The notes under the pieces: generated by a model
What the model was told of the DNA's origin: nothing
Seen by the model: only the letters and a program-made list of their open reading frames with translations
Databases searched by the model: none
Source: Candidatus Omnitrophota bacterium
Lineage (GTDB): Bacteria > Omnitrophota > Gorgyraeia > JAHJTE01
Direction of reading: 5' to 3'
Assembly (NCBI GenBank): GCA_018830005.1
Contig: JAHJTE010000002.1
Span: forward strand, 139,809 to 203,808
Length of the DNA stretch: 64,000 bases
Position numbers and translations under genes: made by a program
In this document: positions 15,489 to 38,197 of the stretch, piece by piece
Position numbering within the stretch: the first letter of the stretch is position 1
Layout: every line of letters begins with the position of its first letter

Positions 15489-16259
15489 TTATATCTGAGC
15501 TAACAAATTAAGGGCTTTCAAGGTTAGGTCTTCATCTACAATATCTATGCTTCCAGCCAGGAATCTACGAATGATCTTTATGTCACCGCCAGTTGCAGCT
15601 ACCTTAGCATTTTTGCCGATTTTTTTCTTCACCTCTTTAATCAGCTCCTTAATCATGCATGAAAAACCAAAGAACAATCCGCTATATATACTCTGGCTCG
15701 TTGTTCTTCCTATCAAAGGCAGTTTAGCTGGCTTTTTGCTTAAGCTTAAACTTGGAAGTAATGCTGTTTTTTGCGAAAGTGCCTCAAGACTTATCTTTAG
15801 ACCGGGTGTGATTATGCCGCCAAGATAGGCGCGGCCTTTAGAAACAGCTTCAATAGTAACAGCTGTTCCAAAGTCCAAGATTATGAGTGGCTGACCATAG
15901 AACCTTGCGGCAGCATAAGCAGTAACTAATCTATCCTGACCAACAGACTCGGGGTGTTTATATAAATTTTTTATTGGGACAATTAAATCTTCGCCGCAAA
16001 ATACAGGTTTAACTTTAAGGATTTTCCTTAACTCGAAGCTCAACACCTTATTCATATCCGGCACAACGCTACATATTATTATTGCATCTGGATGCGCCCC
16101 TAAATGCTTAAGACGCATAAGATGTCTTCTTAAAACAGGCCGGCTTGATCTGGTTGCAATACTAATTTTAGATTTTAATACAGATTTTCTAAATAGACCA
16201 ATACTAATATTGGTATTGCCTACGTCTATAGCTATTATCAGAGATTTTCTATTTTTCAA
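15489..16259 (-). CDS. coaX: Type III pantothenate kinase
   Basis: IAIDVGNTNISIGLF N-terminal ASKHA motif; about 256 aa. Confidence 0.85.
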   Translation of the reverse strand: MKNRKSLIIAIDVGNTNISIGLFRKSVLKSKISIATRSSRPVLRRHLMRLKHLGAHPDAIIICSVVPDMNKVLSFELRKILKVKPVFCGEDLIVPIKNLYKHPESVGQDRLVTAYAAARFYGQPLIILDFGTAVTIEAVSKGRAYLGGIITPGLKISLEALSQKTALLPSLSLSKKPAKLPLIGRTTSQSIYSGLFFGFSCMIKELIKEVKKKIGKNAKVAATGGDIKIIRRFLAGSIDIVDEDLTLKALNLLAQI

Positions 16260-18231: not shown

Positions 18232-18239
18232 GGGTTAGA

Positions 18240-19091
18240 TTAAGCGATATCTAAACTAAAATCTATAGCTTTAGGCGAATGGGTAAGGCAACCAACGGAA
18301 ATGAAATCCACCCCAGTCTTTGCAATGGCATGCACATTCTGCAGAGAAACTCCACCCGAGGCCTCAAGTTTTGTTTTAGGGCTGAATCTTCTTTTCAAAA
18401 TCAGGCATGTTTTTAATTGCGCAAGGCTCATATTATCAAGCATTATAATATCTGGAGCAAAATGAATGATTTGAGAAAATTCCTTTATGTTCTCGATTTC
18501 TATCTCAATCTTGGTATTACTGGAGGTTTTAAGTTTAGCCTTCTTGATTATATCTTTAAGATTATGGCCTCTTAGGATCTTTTTATGATTATCCTTAATA
18601 ATAACTGAATCTGCAAGCGACATCCTATTTTTAATTCCGCCACCACAGCTAAAGGCATATTTCTCAAGCTGCCTCATAAGCGGAATTGTCTTTCGCGTAT
18701 CCATAATCTTTACTTTTGTGCCTCTGACCTTGTTTAGGAATTTAGCTGTTAAGGTTGCAATGCCACTCATGTGAGAGAGAAAATTAAGAGCTACTCTCTC
18801 TCCGGAAAGAATTGCCCTGGCATTGCCGCTTATCTTAGCTACGATACTGCCTTTGCCTATTGCAGCCCCATCCTTAAATCTACTAACAAATTTTAAATGA
18901 GGGTGAATCGCCTTAAAGACTGCCTTTGCTACTGCCAGGCCTGAAAGGATACAATCCTCTCGCGCAATAATCTGTGCATTGGCTTTCCTCTTGCGTCCGA
19001 TTAAGGCCTTTGTAGTAATATCAAAAGAGGCCTTATCCTCTCTTAATGCCTTAAGGACTATATCTTTAATCTTTGAATTATTTAAGTACAC
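18240..19091 (-). CDS. nadC: Nicotinate-nucleotide pyrophosphorylase (quinolinate phosphoribosyltransferase)
   Basis: QPRTase N- and C-domain pattern; 283 aa. Confidence 0.8.
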   Translation of the reverse strand: MYLNNSKIKDIVLKALREDKASFDITTKALIGRKRKANAQIIAREDCILSGLAVAKAVFKAIHPHLKFVSRFKDGAAIGKGSIVAKISGNARAILSGERVALNFLSHMSGIATLTAKFLNKVRGTKVKIMDTRKTIPLMRQLEKYAFSCGGGIKNRMSLADSVIIKDNHKKILRGHNLKDIIKKAKLKTSSNTKIEIEIENIKEFSQIIHFAPDIIMLDNMSLAQLKTCLILKRRFSPKTKLEASGGVSLQNVHAIAKTGVDFISVGCLTHSPKAIDFSLDIA

Positions 19092-21726
19092 GATGAATTT
19101 CTTTTAGCTTTTTTAGGCTATGTTGATAAACCTGCAGTTTATCTCTCTGGCGAGTTAGGACATCTTTGGGGGCCTTTGCTAAGAACTGTTTATTTTTTAA
19201 TTGGGAGGCGATATTCTCGCTATTTTTGGTTAATAGAGCAATGCGTTTTTCTATAGTTTTTAATCGGATTGCAGTATCACTAGCAGCAAAGGGTATATAA
19301 ATACTCAAGCCCCCCTCTACATCCGCTATTGCCTTTGGCGGCTTCTTGGCAGAAACTGCAAACTCACAAGACTTAGACTTTGTTAACTCCTTAAATCTAT
19401 GCTTCAGGCTTTCTAAAAAGGCAATATCCTTCTTAGAATCAGAGCTTACCAACACATCAATTAGGTCTGACTTATCAAGACCTAAGTCAGCACGTAAATC
19501 CCTTACCCTCTTGACCAAAGACATGAAAACAGCCATCTCGCTCTCCAGTCTAGAATCTATAAATTTAGTATTAACCTCAGGGTATGGTCCATACATTATT
19601 GAGACGTTATCAGCCTCAGCCTTGATCAGGGATGAAATCTCTTCAGTAATAAAAGGCATGAAAGGATGTAATAATTTTAAAAAGTCACTCATACAGTAAA
19701 TTAATACAGCCTTGGTTTGAAGACGACCCTTAGCTACATCATCCTTAGCAATTTCAATAAACCAATCACAAAATTCGTGCCAGAAAAATTCGTACAAAGA
19801 TTTAGCGCTCTCACTAAAATTATATTTTCCTAAATTGCTCCTGAGTCTAGCTATTGTGTGCTGCAATCTGCTCAAAATCCAGCGCTCAGCTAAATTTAAG
19901 TCTTTTAATTCAACTGCAGGCAGTTTGGATTCACCCATATTCATAAGGATGAATCTTGAGGCATTCCAGATTTTATTCGCAAAGTTCCTGCCCATTTGAA
20001 ACTTCTCTTTTGATAAAAATATGTCCTGGCCTGTAGCAGTAAAAGATGCCAAGCTGAAACGTAAAACATCAGCCCCGTATTCATTAATTACCTCTAAGGG
20101 GTCAATAATATTGCCTAAAGACTTGGACATCTTTTTTCCCTCGATATCACGCACTGTACCGTGGATATAGACGTCATTAAACGGGATATCCTTCATAAAT
20201 TCAAGCCCGGCCATAATCATCCTGGCAACCCAGAAGAATATTATCTCAGGTGCTGTAACCAAGCAATCTGTGGGATAAAAATATTTCAGATCTCTCAAGA
20301 CCTTTTTGCTTTGACTTGGCCAGCCAAAAGTAGCAAAAGACCAAAGCCAGGAAGAAAACCAGGTATCAAGGACATCTTCATCCTGTTTAAGATTTGTCGA
20401 CTTGCAAGAAAGGCAGGCCTTAGGATGCTCAATACTTGCCATTGGCTTACCCTTGCAATCCAGACAATACCATATCGGCAGTCTATGCCCCCACCAGATC
20501 TGGCGAGATATACACCAATCTCTGATATTCTCCATCCAGTTAAGATAGACCTTAGTCCAACGCTGGGGATAAAACTTTATCTTGCCTTTTTTCACCGCAA
20601 GAATAGCAGGTTTGGCCAGGGCCTTCATCTTAACAAACCATTGACGCGACAAATATGGTTCAATTATCGTATGACAACGATAACAATGACCAGCAGAAAG
20701 CTGATAATCCTCTATTTTTTCTAAAAGGCCTTCTGTTTTCAAATCTTCTAGAATCATCTGGCGCGCCTTAAATCTATCCAGGCCCTTGTATTTACCAGCG
20801 CGTTCATTCATTGATGCATCCGGATGCATGACATTTACAAACTCCAAGTTATGCCTCTTGCCTAATGACTCATCATTAGGATCATGGGCTGGAGTAACCT
20901 TTACTGCGCCTGTTCCAAATTCTTTATCTACAATACTGTCTGCAATAATCTTTATCTCTCTGTTGATCAGAGGCAGAATTAAAGTCTTGCCAATAAATTT
21001 GTTATAACGCTTATCTTTAGGATTCACTGCTACTGCCGTATCTCCCAACATCGTTTCAGGTCTAGTTGTGGCAACAATAATGAATTCATCAGGCCTATCC
21101 TGAAATGGATACTTTAAATAATAAAGATTGCCTTTTAATTCACTGTAGGGAGCCTCTTCATCTGAAAGGGCAGTAAGACAGCGCGGACACCAATTAATAA
21201 CCTTATCATCCTGATAGATTAAACCTTTATTCCAAAGTTTAATAAAGACCTCTTTCACAGCATAAGAATAATCTTCATCCATAGTAAAGCGCGTACGTGA
21301 CCAGTCACAGGAGGCGCCTATTTTTTTAAGTTGGTGTATTATCATCAAACCGTATTCCTCTTTCCACTTCCAGACCTCTCTTAAAAACTTTTCCCTGCCT
21401 AAATCCTGCCTTCTAAGCCCTTGCTTGGCTATTGCCTTTTCAACGACATTCTGGGTGGCAATTCCAGCATGATCTGTTCCTGGCATCCACAATGTTTCAT
21501 AGCCAGCCATTCTGGCAAATCTAATAAGGACATCTTGGTAGGTATTGTTTAAGGCATGGCCCATATGCAAGATGCCAGTAACATTAGGCGGTGGTATCAT
21601 AATAGTATAGGGACTCTTCCTGGAATTAATCTCAGCATGAAACAAACCTTGCCTCTGCCAGAAATCATACCATTTTTCTTCGATTTTTTCCGGATTATAG
21701 CGGGTAGGAATATCGGGGTTCATCAT
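19078..21726 (-). CDS. valS: Valyl-tRNA synthetase
   Basis: PPPNVTGILHMGHALN (HIGH) and KMSKSLGN motifs; 882 aa with C-terminal coiled coil. Confidence 0.95.
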   Translation of the reverse strand: MMNPDIPTRYNPEKIEEKWYDFWQRQGLFHAEINSRKSPYTIMIPPPNVTGILHMGHALNNTYQDVLIRFARMAGYETLWMPGTDHAGIATQNVVEKAIAKQGLRRQDLGREKFLREVWKWKEEYGLMIIHQLKKIGASCDWSRTRFTMDEDYSYAVKEVFIKLWNKGLIYQDDKVINWCPRCLTALSDEEAPYSELKGNLYYLKYPFQDRPDEFIIVATTRPETMLGDTAVAVNPKDKRYNKFIGKTLILPLINREIKIIADSIVDKEFGTGAVKVTPAHDPNDESLGKRHNLEFVNVMHPDASMNERAGKYKGLDRFKARQMILEDLKTEGLLEKIEDYQLSAGHCYRCHTIIEPYLSRQWFVKMKALAKPAILAVKKGKIKFYPQRWTKVYLNWMENIRDWCISRQIWWGHRLPIWYCLDCKGKPMASIEHPKACLSCKSTNLKQDEDVLDTWFSSWLWSFATFGWPSQSKKVLRDLKYFYPTDCLVTAPEIIFFWVARMIMAGLEFMKDIPFNDVYIHGTVRDIEGKKMSKSLGNIIDPLEVINEYGADVLRFSLASFTATGQDIFLSKEKFQMGRNFANKIWNASRFILMNMGESKLPAVELKDLNLAERWILSRLQHTIARLRSNLGKYNFSESAKSLYEFFWHEFCDWFIEIAKDDVAKGRLQTKAVLIYCMSDFLKLLHPFMPFITEEISSLIKAEADNVSIMYGPYPEVNTKFIDSRLESEMAVFMSLVKRVRDLRADLGLDKSDLIDVLVSSDSKKDIAFLESLKHRFKELTKSKSCEFAVSAKKPPKAIADVEGGLSIYIPFAASDTAIRLKTIEKRIALLTKNSENIASQLKNKQFLAKAPKDVLTRQRDKLQVYQHSLKKLKEIHRVLK

Positions 21727-23300
21727 TGATTAGACTTTGCATCTTTAGATAATTTATATTCAACTGAATCCATTAATGCCTGCCAACTGGCTTCGATAAT
21801 GTTTTCAGAAACGCCTACAGTTCCCCAGGAAGCCTCTTCATCTTGAGATTGAATCAACACCCTTACCTTAGCTGCTGTTCCGGATTTTGCATCCAGAACT
21901 CGAACCTTAAAATCAGATAGGCGCATCTTAGAAAGGGTTGGATAAAAACCTTTTAAAGATTTACGCAAGGCATTATCCAAGGCGTTTATAGGACCATCAC
22001 CTTCAGCAGTAGTATGCTCAATTGCCTTATTGACTTTTAACTTGATAGTTGCCTCACTCACTAGTTTTCCGCTTTGTTTTTTCTCGATAATAACGCGAAA
22101 ACTTTCAAGCTCGAAAAATTTGGAGTGCCTTTTAAATGCCTTTTGTAATAACAAGGCAAAGGATCCATCCGCAGCCTCAAATTGATATCCTTTATGCTCT
22201 AGGTCTTGCAAGAGTTTAAGCAACTTTTCAGCCTCAGGCGACTTTTTCTCCAAATCAAATTCCAGTTCTTTGGCCTTTATAACTAAAGGAGTCTTGCCTG
22301 CTAACTCCGAGACAAGAATCTTCCTGCTATTCCCCACTGCCTCTGGATCAATATGTTCGTAGGTCTTGGGGTTTTTTGTCATTGCATCAATATGCACGCC
22401 TCCTTTGTGAGCAAATGCAGAATGGCCCACAAAGGGGAGATTATTGGGTTGTATGATATTTGCTACTTCACAAATATAACGTGAAACCTCTGTAAGCTTT
22501 TTTAATTGAGCCTCAGATATGCAATTAATCCTAAGTTTTAATTTAGCTATGGCTATAACACTGCATAAGTCAGCATTGCCACAGCGCTCTCCTAATCCAT
22601 TGATCGTTCCCTGTGCCTGAGAACAGCCATTCTCAATTGCAACAATCGAATTTGCAACTGCCAGCCCTAAATCATTATGCGTATGAATTCCCAAGGGAGC
22701 ATTTATCTTAGAGCTAACTTCTTTTATTATCTCTCTAAGTTGGGAAGTAACTGTGCCGCCGTTAGTATCACAAAGCACAAGTAATTTTGCTCCGCTTGCT
22801 GCTGCGACCTCTAAGGTCTTTAGCGCATAATCCCTGTTGGACTTGTAGGCATCGAAGAAATGCTCGGCATCAAAAAATACCTCTCTTTTATTAGAAACCA
22901 GATATTTGATACTCGCCTCGATTATCCTAAGGTTCTCATCAAGACTCACCTTAAGCACATCCTTAACATGTAAATCCCAGGATTTACCAAAAATAGTAAT
23001 TACCTTTGTTTGGGCCTGAAGCAATCTCTTTATGTTCTCATCTGTTAGGACAGTTTTATTTACCCGATGAGTCGAGCCAAAAGCAACTAGTTGACTAAAG
23101 CTTAATGGGTTCTTCTTCAAGATTTCAAATACCTTTCTGTCTTTGGTATTAGACGGCCAACCAGCCTCGATGAAATGGACACCCAGTTCGTCCAAAACCC
23201 TGGCAATCCTGATTTTATCCTCTAGGGAGAAAGAAATACCTTCTGTCTGAGCCCCATCGCGCAATGTGGTATCATATAAGAAAAGTGTTTTAGGTAACAT
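21723..23300 (-). CDS. cimA: (R)-citramalate synthase / 2-isopropylmalate synthase family (CimA-like)
   Basis: LYDTTLRDGAQ, HTHNDLG and LeuA-dimer C-terminal regulatory domain. The overall pattern resembles Geobacter/Leptospira-type CimA. Adjacent to lysC. Confidence 0.7.
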   Translation of the reverse strand: MLPKTLFLYDTTLRDGAQTEGISFSLEDKIRIARVLDELGVHFIEAGWPSNTKDRKVFEILKKNPLSFSQLVAFGSTHRVNKTVLTDENIKRLLQAQTKVITIFGKSWDLHVKDVLKVSLDENLRIIEASIKYLVSNKREVFFDAEHFFDAYKSNRDYALKTLEVAAASGAKLLVLCDTNGGTVTSQLREIIKEVSSKINAPLGIHTHNDLGLAVANSIVAIENGCSQAQGTINGLGERCGNADLCSVIAIAKLKLRINCISEAQLKKLTEVSRYICEVANIIQPNNLPFVGHSAFAHKGGVHIDAMTKNPKTYEHIDPEAVGNSRKILVSELAGKTPLVIKAKELEFDLEKKSPEAEKLLKLLQDLEHKGYQFEAADGSFALLLQKAFKRHSKFFELESFRVIIEKKQSGKLVSEATIKLKVNKAIEHTTAEGDGPINALDNALRKSLKGFYPTLSKMRLSDFKVRVLDAKSGTAAKVRVLIQSQDEEASWGTVGVSENIIEASWQALMDSVEYKLSKDAKSNQ

Positions 23301-23305
23301 TTAAC

Positions 23306-24583
23306 TTACCTCTTTAATAACTTATGGCTGCCTGATTTATTCAGTTTAAATTTAGAATGGAGCGTCCTTACTGCCCTTGTAGCAAATTTTTTATTAATAA
23401 TACAGCATATGCTTATTTCGCTGGTAGAGATCATCTCAATATTTATCTTTTCCTTTGCAAGTGCCTCAAACATCTTTGCAGCTACTCCTGGATGGGACTT
23501 CATCCCTACGCCCACAATCGAGACCCTTGCGATATCCTCATCGCTTAAAACCTCGCTTGCTCCGATTGAACCGGCAACCTTACGCGCTATCTTTAATGCC
23601 TTAGATAAGGCCCCTTTGGGAACAGTAAATGAGATATCTGTTTGTCTAGTGTGGGAAACATTCTGGACTATCATATCAACATTTATATCCGCACTTGATA
23701 GATGTGTAAATATCCTGGCTGCCACACCAGGTCTATCAGGAACATTACAAACAGTAATCTTTGCCTCTGTTTTATTTAAAGTGATACCTCTTATGAGGAC
23801 ATCTTCCATCTTACCTACCTCCTTAATCTTTAAACGCCTCAAGTCGCTAAAAGCCCTTGTAATAAAAGTGCCGTTCTTTTTCTTAAAGGATGAACGTACA
23901 TGAATAGGAACGTGAAATTTTTTAGCAACCTCAATAGAACGTACCTGCAAAACCTGAGCACCTAATGAAGCCATCTCTAGCATTTCGTCATAATTAATAA
24001 ATTTTAATTTTCTGGCATCTTTTACAATTCTAGGATCAGCAGTAAAAACTCCATCCACGTCAGTATAGATTTCGCAAAGCTGGGCATTCAAGGCCTTAGC
24101 CAAGGCCACGGCAGTTAAATCAGAACCGCCCCTGCCTAAGGTCGTAATTTCATCTTGGGCTGTAACTCCCTGAAAGCCAGCTACTATAACTATAGAGCCT
24201 CTTTCTAAATGGCGATTAATTCTACGGCAGTCAATTCTTAAAATTCTTGCATTTGTGTGACGCTTATCAGTAACAATACCAACCTGAGCACCAGTCAAGG
24301 ATACTGCCTCAGAACCTAACTTATGTAGTGCCATTGCCAATAATGATACAGAGATTTGCTCTCCCGTAGAAAGAAGCATATCCATCTCCCGCTCCGATGG
24401 ATTGAGATTAATCTCACCTGCCAAGGAAACTAATTCGTCCGTAGTATCTCCTAAGGCTGAGACGACAACGACTACATCGAAATTCTTACTTCTATATTCA
24501 AATACTCTTTTGGCAACGCGTTTAATCTTGCCAGGATTAGCTACAGAGGAACCGCCAAATTTTAAGATAATCAATTTACGCAT
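23306..24583 (-). CDS. lysC: Aspartate kinase
   Basis: IILKFGGSSVAN N-terminus, amino-acid kinase fold, two C-terminal ACT domains. Confidence 0.9.
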   Translation of the reverse strand: MRKLIILKFGGSSVANPGKIKRVAKRVFEYRSKNFDVVVVVSALGDTTDELVSLAGEINLNPSEREMDMLLSTGEQISVSLLAMALHKLGSEAVSLTGAQVGIVTDKRHTNARILRIDCRRINRHLERGSIVIVAGFQGVTAQDEITTLGRGGSDLTAVALAKALNAQLCEIYTDVDGVFTADPRIVKDARKLKFINYDEMLEMASLGAQVLQVRSIEVAKKFHVPIHVRSSFKKKNGTFITRAFSDLRRLKIKEVGKMEDVLIRGITLNKTEAKITVCNVPDRPGVAARIFTHLSSADINVDMIVQNVSHTRQTDISFTVPKGALSKALKIARKVAGSIGASEVLSDEDIARVSIVGVGMKSHPGVAAKMFEALAKEKINIEMISTSEISICCIINKKFATRAVRTLHSKFKLNKSGSHKLLKR

Positions 24584-26181
24584 TTTATCCTTTTTCTTTT
24601 CATTATCACCTTATAAGATTCAAAAGATAGAATTAAGGCCAAGGCAATCAAGAAAACAGAAATAACCAACAATAGATAATCTGCACTGCGAATATAATTT
24701 ATAATGCCCAGAATAAGCGCTGCAATTGTCGTAACAAGCATAAGGCATGCAGGAATCAAGACATAACGTGCAGGTTTACCTTTAGCCAACAACCAACAAC
24801 TAATAACCAGAAGTGTTAAGGCTGCGACCAGCTGATTACTTGCTCCAAACGCCGGCCATAATTTAGACCATTTACCGCTTAAAGCAAGAAACGAAGCAGG
24901 CAGCAAAATTATTGCTGTGCTAAGATATTTATTTTTGATAGAGGTCAACTCCTCTAGTATATAACGTGCAATCCTGGTTCCAGTATCCAATGTTGTTAGA
25001 ATGAAGGCATTCAAAGTAGTAATGGCAATAAATATGCCGAATCTACCAACAACTACCTCCGAAACTGCCCCAAAACCTTTACCAAAAAGCCCTACTGGCC
25101 CGATATCTTTTATAAGGGCTGCTAAGTTTATTGTCTTGTCAAAACCTGTAAGTGAACCGACTACAATAACTGCCATTAGAGCGACTACGCCTTCAACAAC
25201 CATCGCCCCGTAGCCGATTGCTTTGGCATGTGCTTCGCTTGATAATTGCTTGCTGCTAGTACCACCGGCAATCAAAGAATGAAAACCTGAAATTGCCCCA
25301 CAGGCAACTACGACAAACAACATCGGCCACATTGGACCGGATGAGGTATTATAAGCAATAACTGCACTTTGAGCAATTACAGGCTGAGAAATAACAATAC
25401 TTGAAACTCCCACCAGAATAGTAAAAAACAAAAGAAAACTACTTAAGTAATCCCGCGGCTGAAGCAAGATGTTTACCGGCATTATTGAAGCAAAGAAACA
25501 ATAGACAATTAGGATCAAAGACCACTTTAACATTGCATTTGCACCTATCATAATCGGCGCAAACTCTCCTAAGAGCATCAAACAAAAAAGGCAGACTAGT
25601 CCTAATCCCGTAGCATAGACTATATTCAGATTGCGTTTATAGATTAAAAAACCTATAAGCATCGCAACTGGAATAAGGCCTAAAGAAGGCGAAACTACTT
25701 TAGGCTCATCTACGAATGTCTTGGCACAAAAATAAATAAATACTGCAACAACCAAGATTAAAGCAAGCAGTACAAATATACTAAAAATTATCCTTGCCCT
25801 TTTAGATATTATCTCCTCTGAAACATCAGCTATGGAACGTCCCTCATGCCGAACTGAAACCATAAGCGCAGAGAAATCATGTACGCCACCTATGAATATC
25901 GTACCTAATACTACCCACAATACTGCTGGTAGCCATCCCCATAACGTCAGGGCAATAACCGGCCCGATTATCGGTCCTGCGCCAGCAATAGAAGCAAAAT
26001 GGTGCCCAAAAAGAACAAGTGAATTTTTTGCGGGAACATAATCAATACCATCATTTAATCTTTTAGCAGGTGTAGGACGATTCTTATCAATTCCAAAAAG
26101 CCGCTCTATGACCCCCCCGTAGAATCTATAACCTAAGGCAAACAAAAATAAGGCCGGTATTATAATAAATATCGAATTCAT
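24571..26181 (-). CDS. cstA: Carbon starvation protein CstA family transporter
   Basis: Polytopic membrane protein with the CstA N-terminal signature (FGHHFASIAGAGPIIGPV). Confidence 0.8.
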   Translation of the reverse strand: MNSIFIIIPALFLFALGYRFYGGVIERLFGIDKNRPTPAKRLNDGIDYVPAKNSLVLFGHHFASIAGAGPIIGPVIALTLWGWLPAVLWVVLGTIFIGGVHDFSALMVSVRHEGRSIADVSEEIISKRARIIFSIFVLLALILVVAVFIYFCAKTFVDEPKVVSPSLGLIPVAMLIGFLIYKRNLNIVYATGLGLVCLFCLMLLGEFAPIMIGANAMLKWSLILIVYCFFASIMPVNILLQPRDYLSSFLLFFTILVGVSSIVISQPVIAQSAVIAYNTSSGPMWPMLFVVVACGAISGFHSLIAGGTSSKQLSSEAHAKAIGYGAMVVEGVVALMAVIVVGSLTGFDKTINLAALIKDIGPVGLFGKGFGAVSEVVVGRFGIFIAITTLNAFILTTLDTGTRIARYILEELTSIKNKYLSTAIILLPASFLALSGKWSKLWPAFGASNQLVAALTLLVISCWLLAKGKPARYVLIPACLMLVTTIAALILGIINYIRSADYLLLVISVFLIALALILSFESYKVIMKRKRIKCVN

Positions 26182-27377
26182 TATTTAATAAGATACTTTA
26201 TTAATTCAAATCCTTTATCAAAAACTAATTCTGATTGCCTGGCTATTCTTTCGCTGAACGCCATTGCCTTATCCGCCTCTATACCAGCACCGAATATCAC
26301 AAAGGGAACAGGCTTATTAGTATGCGTACGCAGGCTGATTGGCGTGGGATGATCAGGGGAAACTAAAATACGCACACCAGACATATGCTTTGCTGCCTCT
26401 AGCAGGGGACCAACAATCAAATTGTCAAAACGTTCAATCATAGTAATCTTTTGACGCAGATCTCCGTTATGACCGGCTTCATCAGTTGCCTCGACATGAA
26501 CAAAGACAAAATCACAAGATTGCAGTGCGTCAATCGCATACTGGGCCTTTCCTGAAAAGTTCGTATCGTAATATCCAGTCGCACCTGGCACATCAATAAC
26601 CTTAAGCCCGATTATCTTACCAATACCTTTAATCAGATCAACAGCTGAAATTACAGCTCCCTTAATACCAAAAAGAGATTCAAAACTTGGCATCTTAGGC
26701 AATTGACCCTCACCCCATAGCCAAATCATATTAGCTGGATTCTCTCCTAAGTCAATTCTCACATGATTTACCTTATGATCTTTCAAACAAGAACAAGAAT
26801 CATTCATTAATTTTATCAAAACCTGAGAGCCCTTGCCTTTTGGCAGATTAGTTTTTATGGGCTTGGTCATTATATCATGGGGCGGTTGACATATAATTTT
26901 ACCCTTATCATGAAAGACGGATTTATTGATTACAACCAAATTACGATAACTCGTGCCTGAAAAAAACCTTATGGCATCAGAGCCAATCTTCTTATTCAAG
27001 AATTTAATTAATACCTGGGCCTCTTTTGTACTGATGTGTCCGGCGCTGTAATCAAGTAGCTTATCATCATTACTTGCAGTAATGAGGTTACAACGAAACG
27101 CGACTTCATCCGCGCTCAAATTAATACCAAGATGCGCTGCCTCTAAAGCAGCCCTGCCTGTATAATATTCTAGCGGATCATAACCAAGAAGAGAAAGATT
27201 GGCCACATCAGAAGCTGGCAATAAACCCTTAGGCACAGTTTGAACCATGCCTACCTTCCCAGAACTAGCTAGAAAATCCATATTAGGGGTCTTGGCAACC
27301 TCAAGTGGGGTACGTCCCTTTAATTGGCGTATCTCAACATCCGCCATCCCATCTGGAACAAGAAATATGTATTTCAT
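26181..27377 (-). CDS. ApgM-family metalloenzyme (cofactor-independent phosphoglycerate mutase-like; 'proposed homoserine kinase' subfamily)
   Basis: MKYIFLVPDGMAD... archaeal-type iPGM family N-terminus, about 400 aa. Embedded between thrC and lysC/hom in a cluster that lacks a canonical thrB. Confidence 0.7.
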   Translation of the reverse strand: MKYIFLVPDGMADVEIRQLKGRTPLEVAKTPNMDFLASSGKVGMVQTVPKGLLPASDVANLSLLGYDPLEYYTGRAALEAAHLGINLSADEVAFRCNLITASNDDKLLDYSAGHISTKEAQVLIKFLNKKIGSDAIRFFSGTSYRNLVVINKSVFHDKGKIICQPPHDIMTKPIKTNLPKGKGSQVLIKLMNDSCSCLKDHKVNHVRIDLGENPANMIWLWGEGQLPKMPSFESLFGIKGAVISAVDLIKGIGKIIGLKVIDVPGATGYYDTNFSGKAQYAIDALQSCDFVFVHVEATDEAGHNGDLRQKITMIERFDNLIVGPLLEAAKHMSGVRILVSPDHPTPISLRTHTNKPVPFVIFGAGIEADKAMAFSERIARQSELVFDKGFELIKYLIK

Positions 27378-28027
27378 TTTACTTTACTCACTGTTGTTTC
27401 CAAAATAGAAACCAGTCTTTTAGCTAACATTTGTCGCGAATCTGCCTTTGTAAGCATGCCTTTATGATTAAATACAAAGGATTTCAAGGTATCTTTCTTA
27501 AATGTATTAGCAACTACAATATCAGCACCAGCTGCTTTTTGGGCTAGCCTTGCCTTCTTGATCAATTGTTTTAGGGAACTATTAACCTCTAGCTTAAACA
27601 TTACCAATAGAGATCGCGGACATCTTCTTCTAATCTCTTTTATAATCTTTGGTGCTCTAACTAATTCGATTCTTAGCTTCTTTAGGCTTGAATCTATTTT
27701 TTGCCTAGATTGTCTCTTAACAAGAAAATCAGAGACAGCCGCATTATGGATTATGAAATCAAAGTTATTTTTCTTAATCTCCTCTTGAATCAAAGAACGT
27801 AATTGATTGAAAAAACGAAAATGCCTGATCTTAATGCCCTTGATTCTTTCCTGTTTTAAATCTCTGCTTAATAAAAGATGGACATCTGCACCGCATCTTG
27901 CAGCCTGTCTGGCAATCAATTGGCCTGTCTTTCCAGTGGAAATATTTGTGATTACCCTAACAGGATCAATTGCCACCTGCGTCGGACCAGCTGTAATAAG
28001 AATCTTCTTATCCTTTAGGCCTTTCAC
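27374..28027 (-). CDS. coaB: Phosphopantothenate--cysteine ligase (stand-alone CoaB domain)
   Basis: ILITAGPTQVAIDPVRVITNISTGKTG matches the CoaB (DFP) signature. At 217 aa it has no CoaC flavoprotein domain. Confidence 0.75.
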   Translation of the reverse strand: MKGLKDKKILITAGPTQVAIDPVRVITNISTGKTGQLIARQAARCGADVHLLLSRDLKQERIKGIKIRHFRFFNQLRSLIQEEIKKNNFDFIIHNAAVSDFLVKRQSRQKIDSSLKKLRIELVRAPKIIKEIRRRCPRSLLVMFKLEVNSSLKQLIKKARLAQKAAGADIVVANTFKKDTLKSFVFNHKGMLTKADSRQMLAKRLVSILETTVSKVK

Positions 28028-28031
28028 TTTC

Positions 28032-29102
28032 TTAATATCCGATTTCTTTTAAGACTGCCTTTATCTTGGCTGGAACAGTCTTTGGCTGACTTATTGTCTT
28101 TATTGCCCTGTCAGGGTCTTTCAAACCATGGCCGGTTAAGATACATACAATTTTTGTCTCTCTGCTTGCTGCCCGTTTGAAATAGCCTTGCTTCTTTAAT
28201 TTCAACAGACCAGCAACAGAAGCAGATGATGCAGGTTCAGCAAATATCCCATCATATCCAGCTAAGATTTTGTATGCCTCAATTATCTCTTTATCGCTTA
28301 CAGAATCAATTAAACCACCTGATTCATCCCGCGCTGCCTCTGCCTGAGCCCAGCTAACAGGATTTCCAATCCGAATCGCCGTAGCAATGGTTTCTGGATT
28401 TTTAATAGGCTCACCCTTAACTATGGGTGCTGCTCCCTCTGCCTGAAAACCAAGCATCTTGGGCAGTTGTTTTATCTTTTTGATATCATAAAATTCCTTA
28501 TAACCCTTCCAGCAGGCAGTAATGTTACCAGCATTGCCAACAGGCATCACTTGATAATCCGGAGCCTCCTCAAGAAAATCACAAATTTCAAATGCAGCTG
28601 TTTTCTGTCCTTGGATGCGATAGGGATTTAAGGAATTTACCAGTTGTACGGGGTATTGTGAACTAATTTTACGCACCAATTGCATACAATCATCAAAATT
28701 ACCATCTATTGCTAAAACTGTCGCTCCATGAATTAAGGCCTGGGATAATTTTCCTAAGGCAATTGCACCTTTGGGTATTAAGACAAGGCTGCGCATACCA
28801 GCCTTAGCAGCATAAGCAGAGGCAGAGGCTGAGGTGTTACCAGTAGAGGCGCATATAACTGTTGTCTTGCCTTCTTCTTTTGCCTTAGATATGGCAAGCG
28901 TCATTCCCCTGTCTTTAAATGAAGCTGTGGGATTAAGGCCTTCGAATTTTAAATAAACACTAAAGCCCTCACCAATACAACTACTTAAGTGAGGAGAAAG
29001 AATCAAAGGCGTATTACCTTCACAAAGTGTAATTATGGGTGTTTCTTTGCTTACAGGCAGAAACTCCCTGTAACGTTGGATAACTCCAGCATATTTAATC
29101 AT
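28032..29102 (-). CDS. thrC: Threonine synthase
   Basis: PLP-lysine motif FKDRGMTLAIS; about 356 aa fold-type II PLP enzyme. Confidence 0.9.
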   Translation of the reverse strand: MIKYAGVIQRYREFLPVSKETPIITLCEGNTPLILSPHLSSCIGEGFSVYLKFEGLNPTASFKDRGMTLAISKAKEEGKTTVICASTGNTSASASAYAAKAGMRSLVLIPKGAIALGKLSQALIHGATVLAIDGNFDDCMQLVRKISSQYPVQLVNSLNPYRIQGQKTAAFEICDFLEEAPDYQVMPVGNAGNITACWKGYKEFYDIKKIKQLPKMLGFQAEGAAPIVKGEPIKNPETIATAIRIGNPVSWAQAEAARDESGGLIDSVSDKEIIEAYKILAGYDGIFAEPASSASVAGLLKLKKQGYFKRAASRETKIVCILTGHGLKDPDRAIKTISQPKTVPAKIKAVLKEIGY

Positions 29103-30484
29103 ATCAAATTAATAAATCTATCTACTACCTCCTTATCAAAATGTTTGCCAGCATATTTTAAGAGTTCTTCCTTGGCTTCCTTGCTAGACATAGCCTTACG
29201 GTAAGGTCTATTGCTGACCATGGCATCAAATGCATCAACCACTGTTAAGATCTTTGTCATTAATGATATCTCATCGCCTTTAAGGCCATCTGGATATCCA
29301 GTTCCGTCTATCCATTCGTGATGATGACGTACTATATTACATAAGGGTCGTAGCGAAGCTATTGGTTTTAATATATTTTCGCCAATTCTTGGATGTTCTC
29401 TGATCATATCTAATTCTGGCTTACTTAATCGATTTGCCTTTCTTAAGATCTCATCACTCGTTCCGATTTTTCCTACATCATGCAAGACACAGGCATCGCT
29501 AAGTAGCTTCTTTGATTTTTCATCCAAAGAAAATGCATCTGCAAGACACAAGGAATATTCAGCCATGCGCTTAGAATGGCCGCGAGTATAAGGATCACGT
29601 GCCTCAACCGCCATAGCCAAAGCAGATATTGTCTGAATATAAGTACTCTCAGCATCCTTGTGCAGACGATGATTTTCAATCGCTGAAGCTGTCTGGTTCG
29701 CAAGCTCTGAAAGCAATATAAGATCATCTTTATTGAATGCCTTATTCTCATCCTTTTCTTGTACAGTAAAAACCCCAATTACGCGATTGCCATATTTTAA
29801 GGGCACGGCCATAAATGAAGCCTCATCCTCTATAACAGGCACAAGCAATGCCTTTCCACTCTTGGCAACAGAACCAATAAGGCCCTCACCTACAATAATC
29901 TTCTTATCCGCAATAGCCTGGCCATAGGAGACCTTCACAGACAACTGCTTGCCACCAGGCTCGATAAGAAAAAGACTAGCCTTCCTAGCACGCAAGGAAT
30001 TAGTCATTGTCTCAACGATTAAATGTAAGAATTTATCTATGTCTTCAAAAGACATTATTGCCTCGCCTACCTTTAGTACGATATCCTGCAACAATGCTTT
30101 TGATTTTTCTAATTCCTTTATGTTCGTTTGAAGCTGCTTGGTAATGCGATTAAAGGAAAGCGCAAGTTCCTTGATCTCATTCTCCTCATCAACTTCTATC
30201 TTTTCAGATGCGGTATTACCTTCGACGATTGCCTTTGCCCCTCGATTAATCAATAAAACAGATTTTATGATGCGGCGGATAATTTCAAGGCCTGCTAAAG
30301 CACTTGTGACTAATAAGGGAATTGTCACTTTCATAAATGCTTCTGTCTGAAAATCAATACCAGAAGAAGAGTATACAAAATAAATAATAGCTAAAATAGG
30401 TAAAATCGAGGTCAAAATAAAAGAAAGGGCGATTTTACGCAATAAGCTGTCACTCTTAATTGAGCGCATCTTCAATCTAGCCAT
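29099..30484 (-). CDS. Membrane-anchored HAMP-GAF-HD-GYP c-di-GMP phosphodiesterase
   Basis: Two N-terminal TM segments, HAMP, a GAF-like middle domain, and a C-terminal HD-GYP domain (HDVGKI ... IDGTGYPDGL). Confidence 0.8.
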   Translation of the reverse strand: MARLKMRSIKSDSLLRKIALSFILTSILPILAIIYFVYSSSGIDFQTEAFMKVTIPLLVTSALAGLEIIRRIIKSVLLINRGAKAIVEGNTASEKIEVDEENEIKELALSFNRITKQLQTNIKELEKSKALLQDIVLKVGEAIMSFEDIDKFLHLIVETMTNSLRARKASLFLIEPGGKQLSVKVSYGQAIADKKIIVGEGLIGSVAKSGKALLVPVIEDEASFMAVPLKYGNRVIGVFTVQEKDENKAFNKDDLILLSELANQTASAIENHRLHKDAESTYIQTISALAMAVEARDPYTRGHSKRMAEYSLCLADAFSLDEKSKKLLSDACVLHDVGKIGTSDEILRKANRLSKPELDMIREHPRIGENILKPIASLRPLCNIVRHHHEWIDGTGYPDGLKGDEISLMTKILTVVDAFDAMVSNRPYRKAMSSKEAKEELLKYAGKHFDKEVVDRFINLI

Positions 30485-31794
30485 TACTTTCCTTCAATTC
30501 TAAATGCCACAGGAAATCTTTTTATTACTACAAATCTATGCATCTCTTTCAACGCCTCTTGTACATCCTTCTCCTTTGCTTCATGCGTAAGGATAACTAC
30601 TGGCACGACCTTAGCTCGACGTCTCTCTTTTTGACTTACCGAGGCAATGCTGATGTGGTGTTTTCCCAAGATTCCTGAAATCTTTGCAAGTACACCTGGC
30701 TTATCAATTGCCATGAACCTTAAATAATAACGGCTCATTAATTCTTGCATCTTAGCCAACCTGGCCTTTAAGACAAACCTCGATACTGGTAATCTCTGAC
30801 CAGTATTTGACTTAATATTTAAGGCTACATCTACAACATCACTTACCACTGCTGAAGCTGCTGGCAATTGCCCGGCACCGCGACCATAAAGCAAGACATC
30901 ACCTACTAAATCAGCTGAAATAAATACTGCATTAAATACTCCGGAAACAGATGCAAGCGGATGTCTTTTTGGTAAAAGCGTAGGATGAACGCGTATCTGA
31001 AGCCTTCCCTGTTCAAGTTTAGATATCCCCAATAACTTCACTACATATCCCAACTCTTTTGCATATTGGATATCAATAGGAGAAATTCCCTTAATGCCTT
31101 CTACATAGATATTCTCAAGTCTTACTGCCTTACCAAAAGACAGATAAGTAATTAAGGCCAATTTGTGGGCACAATCTAAGCCGCCGATATCTAAGGCAGG
31201 ATTTCTCTCGGCATAGCCCTTCTTCTTTGCTAGCTTTAGAGCCTGATTAAAATCTATTGCCTCATCAGTCATCTTAGAAAGAATATAATTGGAGGTACCA
31301 TTAATTATGCCATAGATAGCATTAATCTTGTTAGCGACAAATCCCTCCCGGATTACTTTAATGATTGGAACACCAGCCATCACCGAGGCCTCAAAATATA
31401 TATCACAGTTAAACCTCTTTGCTAATTTAAACAGGTCCTCTCCACATTCTGACAATAATGCCTTGTTAGCAGTAACAACAAATTTACCAGAAGATAAGGC
31501 CTTCTTGATGTATTCTTTTGCTGGATGGATTCCACCGATAAGTTCAATTACAATATCAATCTCAGGATCGCCAACTAAATCACGCGCACTAGAGGCAATT
31601 AACTGTTTGGGCACAGAAAATTTCCTTAGAGTGCGTCTATTTATTTCATATACCTTTCTTAAGCGTATATCAATACCGAGTTTAGATTTAAAGAAAGAGT
31701 TGCGACCGCGTAATAGCCTGTATACACCTCTGCCTACGGTGCCAAATCCTATTAATCCTACGTTTATTTTTTTCATAACCACCTCTTTACACAT
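30484..31794 (-). CDS. hom: Homoserine dehydrogenase
   Basis: NAD-binding VGLIGFGTVG, homoserine-dehydrogenase catalytic domain, C-terminal ACT domain. Confidence 0.9.
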   Translation of the reverse strand: MCKEVVMKKINVGLIGFGTVGRGVYRLLRGRNSFFKSKLGIDIRLRKVYEINRRTLRKFSVPKQLIASSARDLVGDPEIDIVIELIGGIHPAKEYIKKALSSGKFVVTANKALLSECGEDLFKLAKRFNCDIYFEASVMAGVPIIKVIREGFVANKINAIYGIINGTSNYILSKMTDEAIDFNQALKLAKKKGYAERNPALDIGGLDCAHKLALITYLSFGKAVRLENIYVEGIKGISPIDIQYAKELGYVVKLLGISKLEQGRLQIRVHPTLLPKRHPLASVSGVFNAVFISADLVGDVLLYGRGAGQLPAASAVVSDVVDVALNIKSNTGQRLPVSRFVLKARLAKMQELMSRYYLRFMAIDKPGVLAKISGILGKHHISIASVSQKERRRAKVVPVVILTHEAKEKDVQEALKEMHRFVVIKRFPVAFRIEGK

Positions 31795-31818
31795 CCGATC
31801 ACAGATTGAACAATTTCA

Positions 31819-32532
31819 CTATTGGGGAATGCTTACTTGCCCCCGATCTCCTTTACTTTGCGCTTTCTCATCTTCTGTTTTTTCTGCCTGAGCTGCTTCT
31901 GAATCCTCCAGTAGCTTTCTATAAACAAAGCCTGCGGCAAGCATTGTAGTCGGTACTGAAATAAGTAGACCGATCAGAAAAAACAGCGCTCCCAGTATAT
32001 TTATTCCGATAAAAACAATAGCAAAGATAACTAAATTCCACTTCACGCCTTTAGTCAATACTGAACTTTTCTTTAAAGCAGCCACAGGCCTCATTTCTCT
32101 ATCAACAACCAGATATCCATAAAAAGAGAATTGGATAGCCCAGATAATACCGGGAATAATCAACAAAAGCGTACCGGCAAAACAAATTAACCCATAGAGA
32201 AATGAAGCAGCGAGATATTTAAAAAACAAAGGGGCAGGAGAAAATAAATCGCTAAATTTAGGCAGTTCATTATCATAAGATTTTAAAACAATTCTTATTA
32301 GCCCCATCGAAACAATAAATGAAAGGGTTGAACCTATTAAACTTATTCCCAGCGGCAATAAGAGAAAGTCCTCTTTAAGTGCATCACTAATAAGCTTTGG
32401 CGCGAAATTAATCATTACGACAATAAATGTTATCGTTACAAAAAATCCGCCATTCTTCTTAACAGTGATCCATCCAAATTTAAATGCTTCATTGATTGAG
32501 AATTTTTTTGCCATATCTGTCCTCTCCCTCAC
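31819..32532 (-). CDS. Hypothetical polytopic membrane protein
   Basis: 4-5 predicted TM helices and an acidic/K-rich C-terminal tail. No family confidently recognised. Confidence 0.45.
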   Translation of the reverse strand: MRERTDMAKKFSINEAFKFGWITVKKNGGFFVTITFIVVMINFAPKLISDALKEDFLLLPLGISLIGSTLSFIVSMGLIRIVLKSYDNELPKFSDLFSPAPLFFKYLAASFLYGLICFAGTLLLIIPGIIWAIQFSFYGYLVVDREMRPVAALKKSSVLTKGVKWNLVIFAIVFIGINILGALFFLIGLLISVPTTMLAAGFVYRKLLEDSEAAQAEKTEDEKAQSKGDRGQVSIPQ

Positions 32533-32582
32533 AAGAAAGAGTTAAAAAGTTAGGATCTTGCGATTATACCTATTATGTTTTA

Positions 32583-32657
32583 TCGGGAAGGCGGGACTTG
32601 AACCCGCGACCTCTTGAACCCCATTCAAGCGCGCTAGCCAAACTGCGCCACTTCCCG
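32583..32657 (-). tRNA. tRNA-Pro (anticodon GGG)
   Basis: Hand-folded cloverleaf: acceptor CGGGAAG/CTTCCCG, D-stem GCGC/GCGC, anticodon stem CTTGA/TCAAG with loop AUGGGGU, T-stem GCGGG/CCCGC with loop TTCAAGT. 75 nt. Confidence 0.85.
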
Positions 32658-32692
32658 CGATTCCTCGCTTAGACTAACCTATTATAACTTCT

Positions 32693-33694
32693 CTATTCTG
32701 TCTTCATCCTCCTTGACATCAAGACATCAACTGCCTCTGGTGCTTTCTTTCCTTTATAAACAACATTGTAAATCTCTTTTGTAATCGGCATTTCTATCTT
32801 GTATCTATGACTCAATTTATATGCAGCCTTAACAGTTGTAATGCCTTCAGCAACCATACGCATTCTTTCTTTAATTGTCTTTATGCTCTTGCCTTTTGCT
32901 AATTGCTCTCCAACAAAGCGATTACGGCTAAATTTACTAACACAGGTAGTAACTAAATCCCCTAAGCCGCTGATTCCGTTTAAGGTCTCACGCCTGGCTC
33001 CCATAGCGTGCGCCAAATTGCGCATTTCATTTAAGCCGCGTGCCAGGATAGCTGCCTTGGCATTAGCACCAAAACCCAAACCATCAGAAATCCCACAGGC
33101 AATAGCGATTATATTCTTAAGGCTTCCTCCCAGCTCAACGCCAATAACATCAGTATTCCTATATACTCGAAAACGCCGGCTGCTTAATAACTCTTGCAAG
33201 CGCTTCAAATCTAGCGTATTTCTGCCTGCAATTACTGCGGTTGCTGGATGATTTCGCGCTACCTCCAGAGCAATAGTCGGACCAGAAAGCACATATATCT
33301 TCTCTGCAGCCAGTTCCTTTTTAATAACTTGGCTCATGCGCATGGATGTCTCTGGCTCTATGCCCTTAGTTACGCTTAAGATCAATTTTTTCTTAATCCC
33401 CTGAATATTTTTAAGCCTTCTAATTACCTTACGCAGATAAATAGAAGGGACTGCAACTATAAGCAAATCTGCACCGATAACAGCACGCTTTATATTAGAG
33501 GTAATCTTAATCCCAGAAGGAATCCTTATCCCCTTTAAAAACTTGGGATTCTTTCTATATCTATCCAAATACGTTGCATATTCTCTTGAGAAGCTCCACA
33601 ATGAGACTGAAAAGTTCTTTCTATGCAGGATAATTGCCAGAGTCATACCCCAGCCTCCGTCACCTAAAATTGTAATATTCTTAATCTTAGACAT
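32693..33694 (-). CDS. gpsA: NAD(P)H-dependent glycerol-3-phosphate dehydrogenase
   Basis: ITILGDGGWGMTLA Rossmann motif; GpsA length and pattern. Confidence 0.9.
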   Translation of the reverse strand: MSKIKNITILGDGGWGMTLAIILHRKNFSVSLWSFSREYATYLDRYRKNPKFLKGIRIPSGIKITSNIKRAVIGADLLIVAVPSIYLRKVIRRLKNIQGIKKKLILSVTKGIEPETSMRMSQVIKKELAAEKIYVLSGPTIALEVARNHPATAVIAGRNTLDLKRLQELLSSRRFRVYRNTDVIGVELGGSLKNIIAIACGISDGLGFGANAKAAILARGLNEMRNLAHAMGARRETLNGISGLGDLVTTCVSKFSRNRFVGEQLAKGKSIKTIKERMRMVAEGITTVKAAYKLSHRYKIEMPITKEIYNVVYKGKKAPEAVDVLMSRRMKTE

Positions 33695-33699
33695 ATTAC

Positions 33700-34110
33700 T
33701 TATTCTTTAAAAGATCCCCCTTCTTTATTCAATCTATTACAAAGAGCAATAAAACCTTCATCTTTTTCCTGGCGCGTTAAGAAACACAGACCTACATCAA
33801 AATATCCATCAGCTCGAGGACTAACTCTAACAACCTTTCCCAGTATTCCCCTTTGAACAATAAATGTGTTTGCTTCTATCTGTCGACAAAGATCTAAGGT
33901 GCCCATATCAAAAGAAAGCCAAAGGATTACCTCTTCTGGAATTCTATCCTTTAATTTACATAATAGGCCGGATTGACTGATATTCTGAGTATAGCCTGAG
34001 AATAATTTAGATATAGTTTCTTGCTTGCAGACCTTATAGCCTAATGGCTCTGTATAATCAAGGCGCACAAATCTCCTGCGCTCTGGCCTAGAATTAGCGT
34101 GATTTTCCAT
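33700..34110 (-). CDS. PilZ-domain protein (c-di-GMP receptor); start placed at the internal ATG
   Basis: RRRFVRLDY (RxxxR) and NISQSGLL (D/NxSxGG) PilZ signatures. The tabulated ORF start at 34197 is a TTG, and the ATG at 34110 is more plausible. Confidence 0.6.
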   Translation of the reverse strand: MENHANSRPERRRFVRLDYTEPLGYKVCKQETISKLFSGYTQNISQSGLLCKLKDRIPEEVILWLSFDMGTLDLCRQIEANTFIVQRGILGKVVRVSPRADGYFDVGLCFLTRQEKDEGFIALCNRLNKEGGSFKE

Positions 34111-34371
34111 AACTCTATAATTATAGATAAGATAGGTGTGATTTGCAACTAAAATTTGATAATGCAGGTAGGTGCAAGATGATAAGAAAAATAACAAGTA
34201 GGACTTAAGCTAATCAACGAGATTCTCTTAGATGCTGCCTTGTTGACTTGGATAATCTTGAAGAGTATTTAGCGAAGAATTCATTCATCTGACGCAGCCA
34301 TTCTAATTTCTTTTTAGGAGATATTTTCATAAACCTCAAAAGCCGCATCTTTTCACTTTCCCATTTAAAAA

Positions 34372-34869
34372 TCATTTTCCCTTCCTTAATTTCTTGATCT
34401 TTTTAAGTTCAGCTATATCAAATTTATCTACTATTCGAGATGTGTTTTTCTTCATCCTTAGAAGGTCATCTATAGAGATCACAGGGATCCTAATGTCATC
34501 AATCTTCATATTTATCGTCCTTTTTCTAGCTACCTCATAGGAGACGGGTGAATCTATGATTATATCAACCTCCTTTATTCCGTCCTTACCATAGAAATTA
34601 AATGCCTTCATATGTTTATTTTTAATCCAATCTGCTCTTATTTTCCTATCTGCAATTCCCATAGGGTCTACTGGTTGTTTTACCTTAAAACCGCGCTTTT
34701 TTAAAATCTTAACAATTTTTGAAAGATTGTCATCACTCATTTCTACGAGTATGTCTAAATCAGCAGTACTTCTCAGTGAACCGAGGAGATTAACAGCAAT
34801 TCCACCTACGATCATATATTTTACTTTCTTTTTCTGAAAGGCCCGTAATAACTCTTCGTAAATAAGCAT
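34372..34869 (-). CDS. Putative minimal nucleotidyltransferase (Pol-beta superfamily)
   Basis: GGIAVNLLGSLRSTADLDILVE matches the G[SG]x(9-13)DxD NTase motif. Confidence 0.45.
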   Translation of the reverse strand: MLIYEELLRAFQKKKVKYMIVGGIAVNLLGSLRSTADLDILVEMSDDNLSKIVKILKKRGFKVKQPVDPMGIADRKIRADWIKNKHMKAFNFYGKDGIKEVDIIIDSPVSYEVARKRTINMKIDDIRIPVISIDDLLRMKKNTSRIVDKFDIAELKKIKKLRKGK

Positions 34870-37873: not shown

Positions 37874-37947
37874 TGGAGCGGGCAACGGGGCTCGAACCCG
37901 TGTAGGCGGCTTGGAAGGCCGCTGCACTACCACTGTGCTATGCCCGC
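37874..37947 (-). tRNA. tRNA-Gly (anticodon TCC), CCA encoded
   Basis: Acceptor GCGGGCA/TGCCCGC, D-stem GCAC/GTGC, anticodon stem GCGGC/GCCGC with loop CUUCCAA, T-stem ACGGG/CCCGT with loop TTCGAGC. 74 nt. Confidence 0.9.
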
Positions 37948-38007
37948 GTTGCTGGTTTGAGGTTATTACAAGACCCACCACCTCAAAACTTACTTAAGTT
38001 TACTTAA

Positions 38008-38092: not shown

Positions 38093-38101
38093 ATAAAGTT
38101 A

Positions 38102-38175: not shown

Positions 38176-38197
38176 AAATATCATAACTTATTTTCTT

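Follow-up and report, generated by a model that had tools for sequence, protein, structure and literature searches.

The curators of TIGRFAMs are said to have proposed, from genomic context, that some relatives of the archaeal-type cofactor-independent phosphoglycerate mutases (ApgM) act as homoserine kinases. The family has been named ThrB2, and in 278 of 300 gut genomes the occurrence of thrB and thrB2 is complementary (Ashniev et al., PMC9026213). Mutants in BT2402 of Bacteroides thetaiotaomicron are threonine auxotrophs (PMC7311316), and both BT2402 and the diverged DET_RS08350 of Dehalococcoides mccartyi rescue an E. coli thrB::kan strain (GapMind 2026 preprint, bioRxiv 10.1101/2024.10.14.618325). 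The same preprint renames the family HomK and proposes that specificity is determined by E299, a Lys in the mutases; for the phosphoryl donor, it argues against phosphoglycerate and speculates on phosphoserine (10.1101/2024.10.14.618325). A role as threonine kinases has been proposed for relatives encoded in corrinoid operons (PMC4285132), and our literature search found no published link between the Omnitrophota and HomK/ThrB2. Here we analyze a homK gene in a 64,000-nucleotide stretch of DNA from a Candidatus Omnitrophota bacterium (GenBank assembly GCA_018830005.1, contig JAHJTE010000002.1, positions 139,809 to 203,808), hereafter the window.

A first-pass annotation of this DNA had pointed to an ApgM-family gene in a threonine cluster without thrB, and had suggested that it encodes a non-canonical homoserine kinase, a role for which it judged direct proof to be sparse. 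We put at roughly 80% the probability that the gene encodes a catalytically intact HomK (ThrB2/TIGR02535) homoserine phosphotransferase, which would be a non-orthologous replacement of the GHMP homoserine kinase. This reading is no longer new, as the family has already been named and genetically validated, and the window gene is an ordinary member of it. The judgement that proof is sparse still holds for enzymology, but it is outdated on genetics, given the BT2402 auxotrophy (PMC7311316) and the complementation of thrB::kan (10.1101/2024.10.14.618325).

Profile models place the protein in the HomK clade

The homK product matches Pfam PF10143 (PhosphMutase, 5e-54) and PF01676 (Metalloenzyme, 8e-47), with PF10143 inserted in PF01676 as is characteristic of ApgM. 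Together with a score of 520.5 bits on TIGR00306 (apgM, cutoff 320), a superfamily-level model that covers HomK too, this architecture bears out the family membership noted at first pass. The closest solved relatives are the mutases 2zkt (E 1.7e-67) and 3kd8, which align over the full length at ~35% identity. The protein is identical to NCBI entries MBU2541321.1 and MFH1492122.1 from a Candidatus Omnitrophota metagenome-assembled genome (MAG), both annotated 'cofactor-independent phosphoglycerate mutase'.

The alternative that survives best takes this name at face value: the protein would be a true glycolytic or gluconeogenic mutase of the ApgM type that lies in an amino-acid operon by chance. 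Its fold and catalytic core are those of 2zkt and 3kd8, it passes both TIGR00306 and NF003242 ('cofactor-independent phosphoglycerate mutase', 559 bits, cutoff 426), and no second phosphoglycerate mutase was found by Pfam among the called genes and open reading frames (ORFs) of the window and ~6 kb past its right end. Nevertheless, the archaeal mutase equivalog NF003104 (cutoff 489 bits) rejects the window protein at 339.1 bits, although both solved mutases pass it (592.6 bits for 2zkt and 518.2 for 3kd8). Conversely, TIGR02535 ('proposed homoserine kinase', cutoff 446.3 bits) accepts the window protein at 543 bits, with 2zkt at 324 and 3kd8 at 271. The NF003242 scores run parallel to those of TIGR02535 on all three proteins (324 for 2zkt and 275 for 3kd8), so that passing NF003242 amounts to membership in the HomK clade under another name. 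The two models thus describe one clade under two conflicting curated names, which explains the mutase label in the public annotation, a label apparently propagated by the NCBI automated annotation.

A mutase-like catalytic core with a remodelled acceptor site

We aligned the window protein with 120 homologues (58-100% identity) and the two solved mutases. Neither the nucleophile (Ser56) nor any metal ligand (D9, D299, H303, D342, H343 and H352) varies among the 120 homologues, and 2zkt and 3kd8 share them all. Outside this two-metal/Ser core, 20 positions are near-invariant in the clade (at least 114 of 120) yet differ from the residue common to both mutases. The switches from mutase to window protein include R110Y, R111S and R114H (DRRAGR to DYSAGH), K209D, R221W and K296E; read from the alignment, they remove a basic cluster and reverse the charge at position 296. 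This last position is the E of HVEATDE in the window protein and a K in 2zkt (HFKPTD) and 3kd8 (NIKATD). E296 is present in all 120 close homologues and at every one of the 80 species loci. Among 150 family representatives (clustered at 50% identity), 132 are catalytically intact, and most of these carry it along with W221, an aromatic residue or His at 110 and Ser or Thr at 111.

One representative, P0179, has the motif E at position 299, and its D9, S56, D346 and H347 match the numbering published for BT2402, in which the other ligands are D274, H278 and H325 (10.1101/2024.10.14.618325). P0179, which is 42% identical to the window protein, serves as an unnamed proxy for BT2402, the only one picked out by this residue numbering. 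Since P0179 has its motif E at 299 as well as the other BT2402 positions, E296 is the counterpart of the published specificity residue E299. For the remaining metal ligands we relied on two motifs known from the alkaline-phosphatase superfamily, D-x3-H and DH...H.

The replacement of R110, R111, R114, R221 and K296, with the charge reversed at the last of these, argues against a mutase, as do the rescue of thrB by family members with the same signature (10.1101/2024.10.14.618325) and the synteny with hom, thrC and lysC across 80 species described below. We therefore regard a mutase placed there by chance as improbable.

A threonine gene row without a GHMP kinase

An ATG-to-TAA ORF occupies 26181-27377 exactly, on the minus strand, on which every real gene of the window lies. 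In the direction of transcription, the row consists of hom, a HAMP-GAF-HD-GYP gene, thrC, a CoaB-like gene, homK, cstA, lysC, cimA and valS (Table 1). Neighboring genes in this row overlap by 1-13 nucleotides or sit 4-5 nucleotides apart: the homK ATG overlaps the stop codon of the CoaB-like gene (ATGA), to which homK is translationally coupled, and the last A of the homK TAA is the first base of the cstA ATG. Pfam and NCBIfam confirm hom, thrC and lysC, as proposed at first pass; all three lie within 4.5 kb on the same strand as homK, with codons overlapping or nearly abutting. The public gene call for hom is 430 amino acids long, and for this reason its start is probably at 31776. The earlier picture was in two respects too simple. 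The gene does lie between thrC and lysC, but not alone, being flanked there by the CoaB-like gene and cstA; and hom and thrC are both present, but separated by the HD-GYP gene, whose start and stop overlap both neighbors. The row is operon-like, without defined boundaries: scans for promoters and terminators in 18000-34500 found as many as in shuffled sequence and so do not define the ends of an operon, and an Rfam scan returned five tRNAs only, with no riboswitch or leader RNA near the threonine cluster.

The claim that the cluster lacks a GHMP-type thrB stood up to three kinds of search. In the window and the ~6 kb past its right end, no called gene or ORF was assigned by Pfam to a GHMP kinase, an APH-type kinase or a HAD ThrH-like protein; a six-frame scan of the window for the GHMP motif (PxGSGLGSSA) gave nothing credible, and tblastn with E. 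coli ThrB at E<=10 yielded only noise in the window and in ~1.26 Mb from related loci, mostly Omnitrophota homK flanks.

To describe the context elsewhere, we scanned one genome per species, obtained 595 relatives, took the best 80 loci and used the proteins of the window as tblastn queries against them. Nearly all of these loci are labelled Omnitrophota or come from mis-binned 'Planctomycetales' MAGs, so that the counts describe this phylum rather than others, and many loci end early at contig ends. The order gpsA, hom, thrC, (coaB-like), homK, (cstA), lysC, cimA, valS is found nearly everywhere among the 80, with matches to lysC in 69, cimA in 64, thrC in 62, hom in 57, coaB-like in 51 and cstA in 21, and the full catalytic and specificity signature is present in 80/80. 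None of the 80 other species has the HD-GYP gene between hom and thrC. A relative whose HomK is 72% identical (L091) shares this gene, and in one locus (L081) an HD-GYP homologue lies upstream of homK, with no hom or thrC match there.

Of the 62 loci that show thrC, 51 have the coaB-like gene between it and homK, and cstA follows homK in the 21 loci counted above. We considered the CoaB-like and CstA proteins as clues to the phosphoryl donor (for example, phosphoenolpyruvate (PEP) to pyruvate), and rejected the idea because of this partial presence and because the unrelated gpsA and valS are equally syntenic. The CoaB-like protein corresponds to the C-terminal half of TIGR00521 CoaBC and scores under the full-length cutoff; it is probably the organism's phosphopantothenate-cysteine ligase. 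A coaX gene lies at 15489-16259.

Table 1. Coordinates of the features discussed, in the window unless a related locus is named
Feature	Positions	Strand	Evidence or remark
homK, predicted ThrB2/TIGR02535-type homoserine phosphotransferase, ApgM fold	26181..27377	-	398 amino acids; Pfam, NCBIfam, residues
hom, homoserine dehydrogenase, C-terminal ACT domain	30484..31794	-	PF00742, PF03447, PF01842; NF004976 508.7 bits vs cutoff 205
HAMP-GAF-HD-GYP protein, putative cyclic di-GMP phosphodiesterase/sensor	29099..30484	-	PF13487, PF01966, PF13492, PF00672
thrC, threonine synthase	28032..29102	-	TIGR00260 331.7 bits vs cutoff 167.1; PF00291
CoaB-like, phosphopantothenate-cysteine ligase domain only	27374..28027	-	217 amino acids; PF04127 1e-41
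cstA-family membrane transporter	24571..26181	-	536 amino acids; PF02554 1e-137
lysC, monofunctional aspartate kinase, ACT domains	23306..24583	-	NF005155 585.7 bits vs cutoff 346
cimA, citramalate synthase, threonine-independent isoleucine route	21723..23300	-	TIGR00977 726.9 bits vs cutoff 450
Degenerate HomK orthologue, locus L085	8001-9206		syntenic position
Degenerate HomK orthologue, locus L086	8001-9206		syntenic position
Degenerate HomK orthologue, locus L092	10001-11206		syntenic position
Degenerate HomK orthologue, locus L093	10001-11206		syntenic position
Pterin-binding methyltransferase	54175-54993		
CdhD-like corrinoid Fe-S subunit	54968-55933		
CooC-like ATPase	55914-56672		
RACo reductive activator	56693-58627		
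CdhD-like corrinoid Fe-S subunit	58644-59981		

Selected but catalytically degenerate orthologues

Fifteen of the 150 family representatives have lost at least two of the seven catalytic positions, with replacements that differ in each; they are most similar to intact Omnitrophota HomK proteins (39-50% identity) and not to each other. One such degenerate cluster has 86 members, and those named by organism are Omnitrophota (P0216 and P0286 are among the degenerate proteins). Its gene, marked X, takes the homK position in the row hom, thrC, X, lysC, cimA, valS, nadC (QRPTase), uvrB, with the substitutions D9A, S56P/A/V, Y110P, H114A, E296H, D299E, H303R, D342G and H352T. The degenerate orthologue is 40% identical to the window protein and its neighbors are 46-62% identical to theirs; in loci with an intact HomK the figure for that gene is ~59%. 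Ratios of nonsynonymous to synonymous substitution (dN/dS, NG86) among three members are 0.034-0.062 for the degenerate orthologue and, at the same three loci, 0.047-0.081 for hom, 0.037-0.055 for thrC, 0.020-0.072 for lysC and 0.052-0.114 for cimA. A catalytically degenerate HomK orthologue is thus kept by strong purifying selection inside an intact threonine operon.

These orthologues bear on a second alternative, in which the protein serves the operon mainly in a non-catalytic way, binding or regulating ThrC, Hom or LysC, and homoserine is phosphorylated by another enzyme in the Omnitrophota. It would account for a syntenic orthologue that has lost D9, S56, D299, H303, D342 and H352 while its dN/dS of 0.03-0.06 equals that of hom, thrC and lysC, and for the fact that all 15 degenerate representatives are nearest to intact Omnitrophota HomK. 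For the window protein, however, we consider it very improbable, since the catalytic and specificity residues are invariant in it, in its 120 closest homologues and in the 80 species representatives, and such invariance is a signature of selection on catalysis. A milder version, in which HomK-like proteins of the Omnitrophota serve the threonine operon in a second way that does not involve catalysis, strikes us as unlikely. If it were true, the intact window protein would be a moonlighting enzyme, and in the phylum there would be either one more homoserine kinase, so far unrecognised, or a pseudoenzyme derived from HomK that regulates threonine synthesis. The degenerate yet selected orthologues are more interesting than the window gene itself and merit a separate look. 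Two ORFs of 170 and 141 amino acids near the degenerate orthologue were considered as kinases and set aside: they are of low complexity, with hydrophobic, signal-peptide-like N-termini, and their products are probably secreted.

Further observations on the family and the window

Several proteins of ~970-1120 amino acids carry a HomK-like domain at their N-terminus (P0127, P0133, P0137, P0146, P0147, P0148, P0208 and P0247), one long HomK-like protein being from a Clostridia MAG (MDE6604440.1). In P0127, P0133 and P0146 a charged linker leads from this domain to a single predicted transmembrane helix, after which come ~600 beta-rich residues. Pfam found nothing beyond the HomK-like domain in these three or in P0147 and P0247, while P0137, P0148 and P0208 are known by length and N-terminal match only.

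Two other regions of the window stand apart from the threonine row. Positions 37874-46000, beside a tRNA-Thr/Tyr/Gly cluster (37874-38174), are likely an integrated element: they contain a tyrosine integrase (38198-39259), an nSTAND-type ATPase (39282-40487), a helix-turn-helix protein, a SpoVG-like protein and several family-less ORFs, at a GC content of 33-35% against ~39-40% elsewhere. Between 54175 and 59981 lies a gene set for the carbonyl branch of the Wood-Ljungdahl pathway (Table 1), which suggests an acetogen-like metabolism.

Discussion

The idea that this gene encodes a non-canonical homoserine kinase draws its support from the TIGR02535 score, the conserved Ser and metal ligands, the Glu in place of the mutase Lys, and the hom/thrC context. 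Several points weigh against it. The absence of thrB and of a second mutase covers the window and ~6 kb beyond it, on a source contig of 403 kb. The equivalog model NF003242 labels the HomK clade 'cofactor-independent phosphoglycerate mutase'. The experimental support for HomK is genetic and comes from BT2402 and DET_RS08350, neither of which is from the Omnitrophota. A first attempt at complementation with BT2402 failed (PMC7311316), and the later rescue of E. coli thrB was weak, with gains in optical density (OD600) of 0.14-0.25 after 47 h (10.1101/2024.10.14.618325). Finally, the syntenic degenerate orthologues are under selection, so that operon position alone is no proof of catalysis, and the phylum may have a different homoserine kinase.

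The least probable of the alternatives is that the protein phosphorylates another hydroxy-amino acid. It might, for instance, convert L-threonine to L-threonine-O-3-phosphate for cobalamin synthesis, as proposed for CbiU (Dehre_1608) and the cobD-linked homologues. The cobD-adjacent and corrinoid-operon relatives so proposed also carry the Glu, and a residue pattern fit for an amino-acid substrate cannot alone tell homoserine from threonine or serine. However, the Pfam lists for the window hold no cobD or corrinoid-synthesis gene near homK; their sole CbiA-family match, a CooC-like ATPase, belongs to the CO-dehydrogenase cluster 28 kb away. As its immediate partners, homK has hom and thrC in 57-62 of the 80 loci, and the window protein lies above the TIGR02535 cutoff, whereas the cobD-linked proteins of the preprint score better on TIGR00306 (10.1101/2024.10.14.618325).

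For a HomK-type homoserine phosphotransferase, we infer the activity of the window protein, its phospho-Ser mechanism and its donor along the following lines. LysC would make aspartyl phosphate, Hom would make homoserine, the substrate of HomK, and ThrC would turn O-phosphohomoserine into threonine, thereby pulling the HomK reaction forward. By analogy with the related cofactor-independent phosphoglycerate mutases, Ser56 would be activated by two divalent metal ions, the predicted ligands being D9/S56/D342/H343 for one and D299/H303/H352 for the other. Ser56 could then take a phosphoryl group from a small phospho-metabolite and hand it to the gamma-hydroxyl of L-homoserine in a ping-pong reaction. 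The acceptor site would lack the Arg/Lys cluster suited to an anionic phosphoglycerate, and Glu296 would bind the amino group of the amino acid.

In such a scheme the donor is most likely not ATP. We have a weak preference for an amino-acid phosphate such as O-phospho-L-serine over PEP or 2/3-phosphoglycerate, because a ping-pong site would have to serve both donor and acceptor, and this one has lost basic residues and gained a Glu. The word 'kinase' is probably a misnomer, since an ATP-independent transfer through a phospho-serine enzyme is to be expected. The donor question is no more tractable at this locus than with BT2402. Positions 110, 111, 114, 221 and 296 extend the single published specificity residue and offer concrete targets for mutagenesis.

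The main consequence of this assignment would be a correction of annotation: the window protein and hundreds of Omnitrophota orthologues now called 'cofactor-independent phosphoglycerate mutase' would represent the homoserine-phosphorylating step. In reconstructions corrected in this way, these uncultured bacteria would not be called threonine auxotrophs, nor be credited with a glycolytic mutase that they may lack.

How does the locus compare with known systems? GHMP ThrB uses ATP directly and forms no covalent intermediate. With the E. coli enzyme (b0003) the window protein shares a presumed product, O-phosphohomoserine, as well as its pathway and operon position, but no homology, the tblastn matches being noise only. 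ThrH of Pseudomonas aeruginosa sets a precedent: without ATP, and by way of a phospho-enzyme, it phosphorylates homoserine at the expense of phosphoserine, and phosphoserine:homoserine transfer is the reaction that the GapMind authors speculate on for HomK (10.1101/2024.10.14.618325). In contrast to the window protein, ThrH has an unrelated HAD fold and a phospho-aspartate intermediate, and for HomK the phosphoserine donor is speculative. CbiU (Dehre_1608) and the cobD-linked proteins, the proposed L-threonine kinases, belong to the same superfamily branch and have a Glu at the specificity position; they are encoded in corrinoid operons next to cobD, whereas no cob genes lie near homK, which stands between thrC and lysC.

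The ApgM mutases (2zkt from Pyrococcus horikoshii, 3kd8/3idd from Thermoplasma acidophilum, and SSO0417) are likewise two-domain metalloenzymes with a nucleophilic Ser and a two-metal site. Unlike them, the window protein has Y110, S111, H114, W221 and E296, fails NF003104 and belongs to a threonine-synthesis context rather than to glycolysis. It is closest to HomK/ThrB2 as known from BT2402 and DET_RS08350, with which it shares the ApgM fold, Ser56, the metal ligands, the specificity Glu, a score above the TIGR02535 cutoff and a gene beside hom and thrC on the same strand. The layout around it differs: where the Bacteroidota have a three-gene thrA-thrB2-thrC operon (PMC9026213), the row in this Omnitrophota window is longer, running from hom through the HD-GYP gene, thrC, the coaB-like gene, homK, cstA and lysC to cimA.

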